Shown here: in pieces, positions 30,001-33,000 of the stretch
Layout of the letters: each line of letters opens with the position of its first letter
Position numbering within the stretch: position 1 is the first letter of the stretch
NCBI RefSeq assembly: GCF_013315695.1
Contig: NZ_CP054353.1
Length of the DNA: 64,000 nucleotides
Source of the DNA: Escherichia coli
GTDB lineage: Bacteria; Pseudomonadota; Gammaproteobacteria; Enterobacterales; Enterobacteriaceae
Direction: 5' to 3' (one strand)
Position numbers: made by a program

Positions 30001-33000
30001 TCAGCTTTTCCATTACCTCTTTGCCTTCCGCTGTTTTGGTATTTAATTCAATAGAACGTTTGTTACTGTTAAGCATGGTGAAGTAAAGCGCATCGATATC
30101 AGGAATATCTCGCAGCTGGTGACGCGTTACGTCACCAACGCCGGGACGTTCAATTTTAATGACGTCAGCGCCAAACCAGGCCAGCATCTGAGTACAAGAT
30201 GGGCCAGATTGCACACCGGTGAAATCGAGAACTTTAATTCCTTGAAGTGGAGTTGACATAGCAATACCTATTAGTTAATTAAATATGTGTTAATTTAGCG
30301 TTTATTTAAGGCATAACGCCCTCTATAAATAATCCGCAAAATATCGTCGTAGCTGCACTCGATATTTTTAAATTCCTGTATCAAGTACTGGAAATCATTT
30401 CATCGCCACTTCCAATTCCTTTCTGCATGGTAAGTAGTGAGGACGAAAAGAAGAATATGATAAATATTGGTTCGCGGTAATCAGAGAGAGCCGCGACATT
30501 TGTGATGTTATTCTTACAACTGTAAGAAGCGCCAGTGATTTACAAGTAAGGGTATGATTACGCTTTTAAAGCGTACCATAAAACATAACATAATAAATGA
30601 TTTGTGATAACACGGGATTATTGCGGTTTACTTTGAGGAAGATAAAATTCGAGTTTATAGAACCGCGAGCGCCAAATAATTTTATGGCCACAACCTGTCG
30701 TATTGTGGCCATAAAAAATTGTCGGCTGGAGGGAGTAAAATCCTTTACCTCAATATATTGCCTGTCAGCTTTAGTTCACAAACAGTGCTTCGCTATCGAC
30801 GATGATTCCATCTTCCGCACCTTTAAGCGCCAGGTTTGCCTCGTAGTATTGCTTTTTATCAAGCAGTTTCTGCGCATCAGCAAGTGCATTACGAGTCTGT
30901 TTAAGCGGCATCAGATATTGGTTTTCCATTACACCAACACCGGCCAGGCGAAGCTCTTCCATTGCGCCCTTTTTATCCCCTTTCGCCATTTTTTCGTTGG
31001 CAATTTTTATCGCGGCTTCTTTTTCGGGTGTCGCTACATAACTCTCAGAAATTCCGACAGATGCATTAATGACAATATATTGGTCATCATTGACATTGGT
31101 CTTTTTACCTGGCTTTGCGAACTTTGCCCATTCGGTACTGTCATCTGACAACAAAGCGGAAGCTTCATTGGTCAGTTCTTTTGCCTTTTCCGGATCGCCA
31201 TGAAACAGAGCCAGGCGCGCTACCTGCACGTCACGCATCGCATATAAACCTTGTTCAGAGATACGCTCTGCTGCTGCCGTTTGCTGAACTTGCTGAGTTT
31301 GCTGTTGTGCCGCTACCGGTGCATTATCAGCAGCCCATACAGTTGAAGATGCCAGAACTGCTGTGACCATCGTAGCCATAATTAAACGTTTCATACTTAC
31401 CTCATTCTTTAACAGTTTTAGAAAACGCCGCCATCATATTGGGTGAGCATGAAATGAGAAATCAGAGAGCAACGGACATTTTGAAAGGGTTATCTTACAA
31501 CTGTAGTTATTATCGCAAAGCGGCATTTAGTCTTACAGTTGTAGGAATATGCTTCCTGTCACAGAGAACTATTCTTATATACCAAAAAGAGATGTCATTT
31601 ATTATATCGATGTAAATACTGATTAATTATATGTAAATACAGCAATAACGTCGTAGGTTTTCAGTGAACCATTTTCAGGATAACTTTCTATGAAAGTAAA
31701 CTTAATGCTTTTTAGCTTATTTTTATTGGTCTCTATTATGGCATGCAATGTTTTTGCATTTTCTATTTCTGGTGGTGGTAGTGAGGCGAGCTATAAAGAG
31801 ACAGAAAAAACGTCAATGATGACGACAACTCATTCTACAAAATTTCAGCCATCACAGGCGATTTTGTTAAAAATGAGAGAAGATGCGCCACCATTAAACC
31901 TCACAGATGAAATTCCGCCCCCTTTTCCGACAAAGGCGAATTATCTTATCCATCCTGTGCGATAGCGTCTGTCACATGGCAGGTGAACAATCATGCCTGA
32001 TGCTGATGTGAACACCTGCCCAAATGAACCATCCTGACCCACTAGCGCCTGCCATACCCCACCATAAAGCGAATCATCAAGCCACAAGCCGGGGCAAGAA
32101 ACATAAATATCCCCGTCACTAGTTCATTACCGCCAGTTAACCACATGGTGAAGTAGTAAATGAGTGCAGCGAGGATCACCATGCCGAAGAAAGAAGAGAC
32201 CGCCGAGACCACGTTCAGGACCTGACCGATGTATCCGCTTACGCAGACAATACACAGGGCGAGAAACATCCATAAATAAATCATAGCTCAACCTCCTGCC
32301 GCGCTAAAAAACCTGTAACTTCAGTCACTTTAATAGTAAGACAATCCTTAACCTCTGGCAATTTTTGCTAAGCATCAATGAAAACAGCACGTTAAATGCA
32401 ACGCTATTGCGTGCGGAAAACTTTTTACTTTGCACGATTAATAATCAGTAGCTGAAAGCCGTCAGCCAGTGATAAAGTAGAGCCACCGCATTCATGCTCC
32501 TCGTGGTTATGTCCTGACTAGTCTTTACACTCTTTACAGGAACCATTGTCGTACATGATGGCCTAATCAATTGAGTGTACCGCTGTCGACATGGAATCTT
32601 CTGCGATACAACAATTCGTATCTACAGAAGGTAACTATGTTTCCAAAATGCAAATTTTCCCGCGAGTTTCTGCATCCTCGCTACTGGCTCACATGGTTTG
32701 GGCTTGGTGTACTCTGGCTTTGGGTACAACTTCCTTATCCTGTTCTCTGCTTTCTCGGCACGCGTATTGGCGCAATGGCGCGACCATTCCTGAAACGGCG
32801 TGAATCTATCGCCCGTAAAAACCTGGAACTTTGTTTCCCGCAGCATTCTGCGGAAGAACGCGAGAAGATGATTGCCGAAAACTTTCGTTCACTCGGCATG
32901 GCGCTGGTAGAAACCGGCATGGCGTGGTTCTGGCCCGACAGTCGCGTACGTAAATGGTTTGATGTTGAAGGGTTGGATAACCTTAAACGCGCACAAATGC

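Follow-up and report, generated by a model that had tools for sequence, protein, structure and literature searches.

Box-anchored promoter layout common to the EvgA-regulated genes and found at frc, yfdX and, probably, the divergent ypdI of Escherichia coli

The EvgA regulon promoters of Escherichia coli K-12 (emrKY, ydeP, safA-ydeO, yegR, yfdX, and frc; Masuda & Church 2003, Itou et al. 2009) are the group to which the modules described here belong; the genes, the 18-bp inverted repeat, the regulator, and the induction pattern are the same, with no difference in kind. The acid-response regulator EvgA binds inverted repeats of yfdX and yfdW (frc) and induces yfdX and yfdWUVE (PMC3720670, citing Masuda & Church 2003). 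The EvgA promoters of frc and yfdX have therefore already been described, and the core of the present finding is known. PyfdX has been described as directly activated by phospho-EvgA (PMC5706723), and acid induces yfdX, frc, oxc, and yfdV (PMC10746267). In an evgS-constitutive mutant, log2 induction was 8.37 for frc, 6.97 for yfdX, and 2.75 for ypdI (PMC4283999 supplement), ypdI responding far less strongly than the other two genes; in another study ypdI was up 5.5-fold alongside yfdX, yegR, and ydeO (PMC5811628). The literature search found no report of EvgA binding at ypdI and no EvgA ChIP-exo or ChIP-seq data set. The frc, yfdX, and ypdI promoters are not covered by the Reg-Seq preprint, and yfdX, frc, ydeP, and emrK are all missing from the transcription start tables of Kim et al. 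2012.

The BvgA promoters of Bordetella (Pfha, Pfim3, and Pptx) provide a second comparison, BvgA being a homologue of EvgA. BvgA dimers line up at 22-bp intervals, beginning at a strong upstream site and ending at the -35 (PMC7250471). The BvgA half-sites abut as inverted heptads (TAAGAAATTTCCTA), whereas the EvgA box is reversed and has a 2-bp gap (TTCYTACA-NN-TGTARGAA). The primary BvgA site at Pfha is centred near -88.5, and the primary EvgA site, at an inferred position of about -74.5, would lie closer to the transcription start. The NarL/NarP operators resemble the EvgA box in their inverted heptamers with 2-bp separation, and they provide a precedent for a site near -70 to -75, since NarL-family 7-2-7 sites at these distances work from afar at the nir and nrf promoters (centres at -69.5 for nirB and -74.5 for nrfA). 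At nir and nrf, NarL mainly counteracts repressors, together with FNR; the heptamer sequence and the regulator differ from those of EvgA, and no FNR-like partner is indicated at the EvgA promoters.

The window, which is the whole 64-kb stretch of DNA analysed, is a part of the E. coli chromosome with the gene order emrKY-evgAS-yfdE-yfdV-oxc-frc-yfdX-ypdI. Gene identities were taken from annotated E. coli genomes 100% identical to the window and from K-12. The regulator of the frc and yfdX boxes is encoded 6 kb off, inside the window. The genes concerned, the first three named from the identical genomes and K-12, are as follows:

29009-30259, minus strand: frc
30771-31394, minus strand: yfdX
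31690-31965, plus strand: ypdI
21380-24973: evgS ORF, the regulator gene present in the same genome

The window was scanned with the EvgA consensus TTCYTACANNTGTARGAA, allowing up to 3 mismatches. Four matches were obtained compared to 0.71 expected, and 0 of 100 shuffles reached four:

30511-30528, minus strand: frc EvgA box, TTCTTACAGTTGTAAGAA, 0 mismatches to the consensus, 7-2-7 inverted repeat
31492-31509, minus strand: promoter-proximal EvgA box of yfdX, TAACTACAGTTGTAAGAT, 3 mismatches, upstream half degenerate
31530-31547, plus strand: distal EvgA box, GTCTTACAGTTGTAGGAA, 1 mismatch, core at 31531-31546
20520-20537, minus strand: EvgA box in the emrK/evgA spacer, 2 mismatches; in the direction of emrK it is followed by GTATTGCA at +3, TCCTCTG at +26, and TAAATT at +54

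All boxes have the form TCYTACA-NN-TGTARGA, that is, two inverted heptamers with a gap of exactly 2 bp (a NarL/FixJ-type 7-2-7 operator), and the central dinucleotide varies (GT, AC, AT, GC, and CG). The region upstream of gadE had no box at 3 mismatches or fewer, and gadE was therefore left out of the promoter comparison.

A first-pass annotation of this DNA had described near-duplicate modules of about 50 bp with EvgA boxes upstream of both frc and yfdX. The modules are real: the 48-nt strings which it quoted are found exactly at 30481-30528 and 31462-31509, and because frc and yfdX both lie on the minus strand, each module has the same orientation relative to its own gene, as had been claimed. 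Ungapped comparison of the 32 nt following the box on the gene strand revealed that frc and yfdX agree at 19/32 positions (P~7e-5 when compared with random pairs of windows), including a 10-nt exact run in register, CTCTCTGATT (P~8e-5). With gaps allowed, the two 48-mers aligned with 38 identical columns out of 51. No similarity could be seen upstream of the box (12/40 identity) or beyond +32 (7/28). With flank positions counted from the box on the gene strand, the elements of the two modules are:

30501-30508, minus strand: frc, degenerate second half-site-like element ACATCACA, flank +3 to +10, including CA at +9/+10
30479-30486, minus strand: frc, promoter-proximal element (C)TCTGATT, flank +25 to +32, inferred at -41 to -34; its final TT is the start of a weak -35 hexamer, TTACCG (30475-30480)
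30452-30457, minus strand: frc, predicted -10 hexamer TATTCT, flank +54 to +59
31482-31489, minus strand: yfdX, second half-site-like element CCCTTTCA, flank +3 to +10
31460-31467, minus strand: yfdX, promoter-proximal element (C)TCTGATT, flank +25 to +32, overlapping the -35 TTCTCA (31455-31460)
31433-31438, minus strand: yfdX, -10 hexamer TATGAT, flank +54 to +59

When promoters were anchored on the box, the same layout was found in frc, yfdX, safA, ydeP, yegR, and emrK, and in yfdX and frc orthologues elsewhere: an 18-bp box, CA at +9/10, TCYKAT(T) at +26 to +32, and a -10 hexamer at +53/54 to +59. Among seven box-anchored promoters the invariant columns were +9/+10 (CA), +26/+27 (TC), and +31 (T). 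The CA at +9/+10 could also be read in further frc and yfdX orthologue modules, but not in the ypdI and hdeD modules. The best 7-nt window was +26 to +32, with a circular-shift null of P=2.5e-4 using only frc, safA, yegR, and emrK. The block beginning "CAGAGAG", on which the first-pass annotation had relied, is this regulon-wide promoter-proximal element. A search of the window for ACA-NN-TGT-N30-TCYKAT returned three matches compared to 0.02 expected, and the three are exactly frc, yfdX, and ypdI.

A half-site matrix built from the boxes alone was then run along the promoter flanks. This revealed two sharp forward-strand peaks at +3 and +25, with a mean of approximately -0.9 against a background of approximately -11, and the null maximum over 5000 shifts was -2.7. 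The same two positions remained on top with six independent promoters and with four lacking frc and yfdX, and strongly negative scores were obtained in the reverse directions. Individually, the frc and yfdX elements at +3 and +25 obtain weak scores (-2 to -3, close to the 95th percentile of the respective flanks), and their significance lies solely in the positional coincidence across promoters. Measured from the first half-site, the half-site-like elements lie 20 and 42 bp downstream, which corresponds to two and four helical turns. Conserved inverted partner half-sites at these downstream positions were not found in the promoters compared, so that any full-dimer occupancy of the downstream elements would be putative.

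The probable explanation of these observations is that three EvgA-activated sigma-70 promoters, those of frc (minus strand), yfdX (minus strand), and the divergent ypdI (plus strand), are built on one rigid plan within 1.1 kb. Each would consist of an 18-bp inverted repeat, TTCYTACA-NN-TGTARGAA (7-2-7 type), with its centre near -74.5; a degenerate half-site in forward orientation, which ends in CA and follows the first half-site at a distance of 20 bp; a forward half-site-like TCYKAT(T) exactly 42 bp after the first, abutting and overlapping a weak -35; and a -10 hexamer 53-54 nt after the box. [quoted passage not shown] The distances to the start were placed with the help of ydeP, whose leader begins at -178 from the ATG (PMC11210196); this is flank position 66, and the box centre is therefore put at -74.5 and TCYKATT at -40 to -34.

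The proposed arrangement resembles the BvgA promoters, in which a strong, far-upstream inverted repeat is followed by weaker sites on the same face about two turns apart, the last one at or over a poor -35 (PMC7250471). The possible EvgA counterparts are the half-site-like elements 20 and 42 bp after the first half-site, the last of them likewise over a poor -35; their occupancy by EvgA is putative, and each of them scores weakly on its own. TCYKATT overlaps the -35 and therefore could be an RNA polymerase element instead of an EvgA contact. It is thus possible, though not likely, that TCYKATT and CA are RNA polymerase or DNA-shape elements (an extended -35 and an alpha-CTD contact) and that EvgA acts from the box only, in a class I manner. 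A precedent for such action from a distance is provided by the 7-2-7 sites of the NarL family, at about -70 to -75, and the lack of a conserved inverted partner half-site points the same way. However, TCYKATT shares TCYKA with the box half-site, with the same degeneracy at Y and K; TCTGACA and TCYTACA both serve as box halves in Citrobacter and Buttiauxella; and the 20- and 42-bp offsets are the geometry of BvgA arrays.

Since the layout is common to the regulon, the resemblance of the frc and yfdX modules may be no more than that of any two promoters in the EvgA regulon. The first-pass annotation had read it as a duplication, the frc module being a local copy of the yfdX module and the similarity a residue of common ancestry. 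Adjacency on the same strand and the common in-register CTCTCTGATT are in favour of such a copy, as is the G variant TCTGATT found in both modules, where safA, ydeP, and yegR have TCYTATT. In Klebsiella, where the order is yfdX-frc-oxc-yfdV, the frc box is missing and the spacer measures 123 bp; the frc module may therefore be an addition of some lineages only. Adjacent EvgA modules can resemble duplicates, as seen in the ydeP/safA pair (K-12, locus L001), which likewise consists of adjacent same-strand units with an EvgA module each and the same layout. The ydeP and safA spacers are true near-duplicates (17/25; 15/23 without the invariant columns, P=1.4e-4), whereas those of frc and yfdX are indistinguishable from unrelated regulon members. 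Spacer identity was 12/25 for frc-yfdX versus 13/25 for frc-emrK, and with the two regulon-wide invariant columns removed it was 10/23 (P=0.07) versus 11/23. As the frc-yfdX similarity is no greater than that of frc-emrK, duplication is not specifically supported. An excess over unrelated regulon promoters reaching into unconstrained positions or flanks, as a segmental duplication would leave, was not seen for this pair; the similarity stops at the upstream end of the box and after +32, and the trend is for it to be confined to positions also conserved in unrelated EvgA promoters. Furthermore, locus L021 has both modules with unrelated spacers (approximately 10/25, counted by eye), and its yfdX module has TCTTATT, so G versus T is no lineage marker. 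The AAATGT match is itself polymorphic in yfdX among E. coli strains (AAATGA in K-12, AAATAA in L005). A local copy is thus considered unlikely, and the shared block is better described as the position-fixed elements of all EvgA-box promoters examined.

The view that separate EvgA modules drive yfdX and frc-oxc-yfdV-yfdE held up well, as their placement fits, the same is stated in PMC3720670, and a conserved terminator lies between the units:

30680-30716, minus strand: hairpin terminator 3' of yfdX, with a 15-bp stem and the tail UUAUUU

This hairpin (fold z = -4.3) is predicted to be an intrinsic terminator. It is conserved in distant relatives; in L006 it stands out from flanks that have diverged, and one G-C pair of the stem has been replaced by A-T through a compensatory change. 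An Rfam scan of 30100-31800 gave a sole match, a miRNA on the terminator hairpin with E=0.56, which was dismissed as meaningless. Transcripts of yfdX would end mostly at this hairpin, and frc-oxc-yfdV-yfdE would start at their own promoter with a long leader. The predicted frc start is at about 30445, as placed by the register calibrated on ydeP and by the -10-like hexamer, which would give a leader of approximately 186 nt to the ATG at 30259; that of yfdX is at about 31426, with a leader of approximately 32 nt. In K-12 coordinates the two starts would be at about 2,493,440 and 2,494,434, both on the minus strand. Two candidate features of the frc leader were rejected: a structured leader, because folding of 189 nt was no better than that of shuffles (z=-1.4), and a 15-codon uORF, because it is not kept in L006. 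A simple sigma-70 scan finds the yfdX -35/-10 but neither that of frc nor that of ypdI, activator-dependent promoters being expected to be missed by such a scan.

It is very improbable that the similarity arose by chance, or that frc lacks its own promoter and depends solely on read-through from yfdX. The cluster was named the yfdXWUVE operon in older papers, and Klebsiella seemingly uses one promoter. Against this stand the in-register similarity of frc and yfdX (P~1e-4), the position of the conserved terminator between yfdX and frc, and the stronger induction of frc than of yfdX in evgS-constitutive cells. Moreover, E. coli and L006 have almost the same frc module over its entire 50 bp, although the sequence immediately upstream has diverged, and the module is present in L021 with a diverged spacer.

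The remaining box of the region, the distal one, lies 38 bp from the yfdX box (centre to centre) and is followed on the opposite strand by the elements of a third module:

31573-31580, plus strand: ypdI, promoter-proximal element TCTTATAT, flank +26 to +33 of the distal box
31600-31605, plus strand: ypdI, predicted -10 hexamer TATTAT, flank +53 to +58

A start at about 31612, upstream of the ATG at 31690, is predicted for ypdI; in K-12 it would fall at about 2,494,620 on the plus strand. The ypdI-directed layout is orthologous to a module that faces hdeD in relatives, and in the hdeD modules of Citrobacter and L021 the 8-mer TCTTATAT recurs with exactly the same offset. The distal box at 31530-31547 most likely serves this divergent ypdI promoter. 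It had been proposed as a second box giving graded or cooperative control of yfdX, which is probably the wrong emphasis, as the spacing between boxes varies and the full layout faces ypdI on the opposite strand. A cooperative or graded site for yfdX at about -112.5, instead of or in addition to a ypdI box, is rather doubtful, although several observations agree with it. The distal box is nearer to the consensus than the proximal yfdX box (1 versus 3 mismatches) and is kept in Escherichia-like loci; the proximal box has a degraded upstream half, for which help from the distal box might be needed; yfdX is induced far above ypdI; and palindromic sites are able to serve both directions. However, no phasing is conserved between the two boxes, which lie 38 bp apart in E. 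coli but 18 bp apart in Citrobacter, 20 bp in Buttiauxella, and 44 bp in L021, whereas each box keeps exactly 25 nt to TCYKAT and 53-55 nt to the -10 hexamer in its own direction. The flank of the distal box which faces yfdX is without TCYKAT- or -10-type elements. In L006, where arsBC takes the place of ypdI, the distal box and TCTTATAT have decayed, and no distal box was found in L022, which has another upstream neighbour.

In the comparison with other taxa, Buttiauxella (6 species), Klebsiella variicola, Citrobacter, and loci L006, L021, and L022 had the same layout, although their spacers have diverged. By position, the proximal box of yfdX is the orthologue of the box nearest to yfdX in Buttiauxella, Klebsiella, and Citrobacter. 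The frc box is kept in K-12, L005, L006, L022, and L021; among the frc-carrying lineages examined, a promoter of its own for frc is present in E. coli and these four loci and absent in Klebsiella variicola. An evgS/evgA-like pair adjoins yfdX in Citrobacter, and an EvgS-like kinase adjoins it in Buttiauxella; a 200-aa ORF divergent from yfdX in Buttiauxella was rejected as an EvgA orthologue, being HdeD. In Edwardsiella and Hafnia the layout was absent upstream of yfdX, and no EvgS/EvgA-type gene pair was found among the called neighbours.

A broader reading, whose chances we put slightly below even, can be proposed tentatively. EvgA-activated promoters may follow a rigid tripartite grammar across genera (the 7-2-7 box at -74.5, a CA half-site, and TCYKAT at the -35, with the -10), which would imply a BvgA-like EvgA filament running from the box to RNA polymerase. 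The "second yfdX box" would then serve as operator for a divergent promoter in its own right, one that originally belonged to hdeD (Citrobacter, Buttiauxella, and L021) and now drives ypdI in E. coli, and ypdI would be an unrecognised direct target of EvgA.

Two published EvgA operators were re-discovered here, in an acid-resistance regulon that is among the best studied in E. coli, and to that extent the finding changes little. The fixed elements at +3, +25, and +54 may be new with respect to the accessible literature, as may the attribution of the distal box to ypdI. The layout suggests that EvgA activates in the manner of BvgA, with protomers arrayed as far as the -35, and for predicting direct EvgA/KvgA targets the fixed-distance grammar is far more specific than the 18-bp box by itself.

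The window comes from the E. coli chromosome. Its bases 30200-31750 were 100% identical to E. coli strain MS 21-1, and 5418 of the 5426 complete genomes of the species contain this segment. Gene order was derived from ORFs and the K-12 annotation. Since frc and yfdX lie on the minus strand, their upstream sequence has higher coordinates, and the plus-strand strings quoted in the first-pass annotation must be reverse-complemented to read in the gene sense. YfdX had 207 aa in this strain vs 211 aa in K-12, with a 4-residue deletion (QKTA; window 31270-31285) in the glutamine-rich stretch right after the signal peptide; E. 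coli homologues in the database ranged from ~196 to 222 aa, and thus this segment is length-polymorphic. IS903B is inserted at the extreme 5' end of yfdX (window 31380-31388, codons 2-5; target duplication aattaaacg) in the complete genomes of several E. coli strains (165, CREC-591, 779 and others) and cuts the coding sequence off from the EvgA promoter and start codon.

Features of the region (flank positions, +n, count nucleotides after the 18-bp EvgA box toward the gene)
20520-20537, EvgA box in the emrK/evgA spacer, at most 3 mismatches to the consensus
21380-24973, plus strand, evgS
Minus strand, yfdE, yfdV and oxc
29009-30259, minus strand, frc
30511-30528, EvgA box of frc, perfect consensus match
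30680-30716, minus strand, 15-bp hairpin 3' of yfdX
30771-31394, minus strand, yfdX
31492-31509, proximal EvgA box of yfdX, 3 mismatches
31530-31547, distal EvgA box, 1 mismatch
31573-31580, plus strand, ypdI-directed TCTTATAT, flank +26..33 of the distal box
31600-31605, plus strand, ypdI-directed TATTAT, flank +53..58 of the distal box
31690-31965, plus strand, ypdI

The look-alike segments reported upstream of frc and yfdX, each with an EvgA box, could be confirmed. Both 48-nt strings were exact (30481-30528 and 31462-31509), and the EvgA consensus TTCYTACANNTGTARGAA gave four matches at ≤3 mismatches in the window vs 0.71 expected. In the 32 nt after the frc and proximal yfdX boxes, 19 positions were identical in register on the gene strand (P~1e-4), including a 10-nt exact run CTCTCTGATT (P~1e-4); upstream of the boxes, no shared sequence was observed (12/40). 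The EvgA-promoter reading of both genes is already in print (Mullins et al., PMC3720670), and PyfdX has served as a reporter "directly activated by phosphorylated EvgA" (Roggiani et al. 2017, PMC5706723). In evgS-constitutive mutants, frc was among the array's most strongly induced genes (log2 8.37), and yfdX reached log2 6.97 (PMC4283999). The first-pass interpretation was partly supported, in a part already known.

EvgA-box promoters of the K-12 set were anchored on the box and read toward the gene. All shared CA at +9/+10 and a -10-like hexamer at +53/54..+58/59, and TC-Y-K-A-T at +26..+31 was a layout element across the set.

Element at flank +26..32 in the K-12 set
frc and yfdX, TCTGATT
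safA, TCCTATT
ydeP, TCTTATT
yegR, TCCTATT
emrK, TCCTCTG

Position +26..32 scored best among all flank windows, with P=2.5e-4 against circular-shift controls using four unrelated promoters only. A position weight matrix built from box half-sites only, run along the flanks, gave isolated peaks on the forward strand at two positions, +3 and +25 (mean ~-0.9 vs background ~-11; null maximum -2.7 in 5000 shifts). The same two positions stayed on top in a set of six independent promoters and in a set of four without frc and yfdX; half-site scores in the reverse direction from these boxes were strongly negative. The "CAGAGAG" shared by the two segments is therefore the +25 element as read on the complementary strand, the shared "ACATT" overlaps the +3 element, and each is part of a regulon-wide grammar. 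In the evgA direction of the emrK/evgA box, TTGAAA rather than TCYKAT occupied +26..31 (K-12 locus L002 3532-3640; window ~20538-20640), and the published leader (-124 from ATG) sets the evgA start ~101 nt away from the box, downstream of a consensus TTGACA; thus evgA falls outside this grammar.

The ydeP leader used by Gorelik et al. 2024 begins at -178 relative to ATG (PMC11210196), which corresponds to flank position 66. This register places the box centre at -74.5, TCYKATT at -40..-34 and the -10 hexamer at -13..-8. Transferred from ydeP, it would predict starts at ~30445 for frc (leader ~186 nt) and ~31426 for yfdX (leader ~32 nt), the latter agreeing with -35 TTCTCA and -10 TATGAT from a simple scan. 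The frc leader showed no significant structure and no significant Rfam match. In the ydeP register, the TT of TCYKATT starts the -35 hexamer; TCYKATT may alternatively serve RNA polymerase, neither it nor the CA being an EvgA contact, a reading we consider possible though less likely. In the EvgA-contact reading, phosphorylated EvgA would nucleate on the 7-2-7 box at ~-74.5, more protomers would occupy the forward half-site-like elements that follow after two and four helical turns, and the last, whose element overlaps the weak -35, would contact RNA polymerase. Motif, geometry and conservation were observed directly; EvgA binding and induction are taken from the literature. The closest precedent is the EvgA homologue BvgA: its dimers line up at 22-bp intervals between a strong site upstream and one that abuts the -35 (PMC7250471). 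Unlike in BvgA, the half-sites of the strong EvgA site are reversed and gapped (NarL-like 7-2-7), and the downstream elements have no conserved inverted partners.

Orthologous loci were collected by a YfdX scan and contig look-ups.

Layout in other lineages (all with CA at +9/10; box, element at +26..32, -10)
Buttiauxella yfdX (6 species), TCTGACA-NN-TGTMRGA, TCTGATT, TATTCT (+54)
Klebsiella variicola yfdX, TTCCGACAATTGTCATCC, TCTGATC, TATTAT
Citrobacter yfdX, GTCTGACACCTGTAAGAT, TCTGATT, TATGAT
Uncultured L021 frc, TTCTGACAGAGGTAAGAA, TCTGATT(A), TATTCT
Uncultured L021 yfdX, proximal box (3 mismatches), TCTTATT, TACTAT

Apart from the layout elements, the 25-nt spacer of Buttiauxella had diverged and that of L021 frc (YfdX 68% identical) bore no relation to its E. 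coli counterpart. In a comparison of E. coli with L006, a locus labelled Yersinia, the frc module was nearly invariant from box to +33, and the sequence directly upstream of the box was scrambled. In Citrobacter, yfdX adjoins an evgS/evgA-like pair, the evgA-like gene lying beyond the kinase gene; in Buttiauxella, its neighbour is an EvgS-like kinase gene. The yfdX of Edwardsiella and Hafnia had no EvgA box, and no EvgS/EvgA-type genes were among the called neighbours. On the other side of yfdX, Buttiauxella, Citrobacter and L021 carry hdeD-hdeA/B (plus glutamate decarboxylase in Buttiauxella). L006 and L022, labelled Yersinia vastinensis (homologue named Yersinia alsatica), have an E. coli-like yfdX-frc-oxc cluster with both EvgA modules and YfdX 83-85% identical, adjoining arsB-arsC (L006) or hypF (L022), which suggests horizontal transfer of the cluster.

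The proposed duplication of a module between frc and yfdX was not specifically supported by spacer identity, counted in register over +1..25.

Spacer identity (second count without the two invariant CA columns)
frc-yfdX, 12/25; 10/23 (P=0.07)
frc-emrK, 13/25; 11/23 (P=0.03)
L006 yfdX-ydeP, 14/25
ydeP-safA (adjacent pair), 17/25; 15/23 (P=1.4e-4)
Control directions, 2-9/25

The residual frc-yfdX identity did not exceed that of frc-emrK, and yfdX varies at the AAATGT match (AAATGA in K-12, AAATAA in L005, an Escherichia-like locus). In Klebsiella variicola (L014/L015 4625-4747), with gene order yfdX-frc-oxc-yfdV, no EvgA-type box was found before frc in the 123-bp yfdX-frc spacer; thus, a separate frc promoter and long spacer are not universal among frc-carrying lineages. 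An origin of the frc promoter by copying is possible. The ydeP and safA modules (L001 3541-3589 and 6200-6248) are far closer to each other than frc to yfdX and share an extended -10 (TGT-TAWWTT at +50..58); as a case of true promoter-module duplication, they are the stronger candidate.

The claim that yfdX and frc-oxc-yfdV-yfdE are driven separately was supported. The 111-nt segment 30660-30770 containing the hairpin folded far better than shuffles (z=-4.3), and the hairpin was kept in L006 although its flanks diverged. Its stem is GGCCAC...GTGGCC in this strain vs GACCAC...GTGGTC in K-12, L005 and L006, a compensatory G-C to A-T double change. The conserved hairpin and conserved frc module argue for a separate unit, possibly with some read-through.

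The distal box had been proposed as a second site for graded or cooperative yfdX control. Its layout faces ypdI: TCTTATAT and TATTAT are kept in K-12 and L005, and the composite ACA-NN-TGT-N30-TCYKAT had three matches in the window vs 0.02 expected, namely frc, yfdX and ypdI. The reverse flanks of the Citrobacter and L021 distal boxes carry the same TCTTATAT at the same offset with a -10 hexamer, directed at hdeD, and Buttiauxella has a matching reverse-strand match. The module directed at ypdI in E. coli is orthologous to the one directed at hdeD in these lineages (L009, L016 and L021); E. coli hdeD is located elsewhere, under GadE control. Box-to-box distance varied (18, 20, 38, 44 bp), whereas box-to-own-element distances were fixed. 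In L006, which has arsBC in place of ypdI, decay was seen in both the distal box and its TCTTATAT; no distal box was found in L022, whose upstream neighbour differs. Expression of ypdI rose in an evgS-constitutive mutant (log2 2.75; PMC4283999) and 5.5-fold upon glutathione treatment, along with yfdX, yegR and ydeO (PMC5811628). Taken together, these features lead us to read the yfdX-ypdI spacer as two putative back-to-back EvgA promoters with one box each, between which some cross-talk may occur. The fixed promoter grammar and the predicted ypdI assignment, both drawn from comparison of sequences, are the sole points that may be new.
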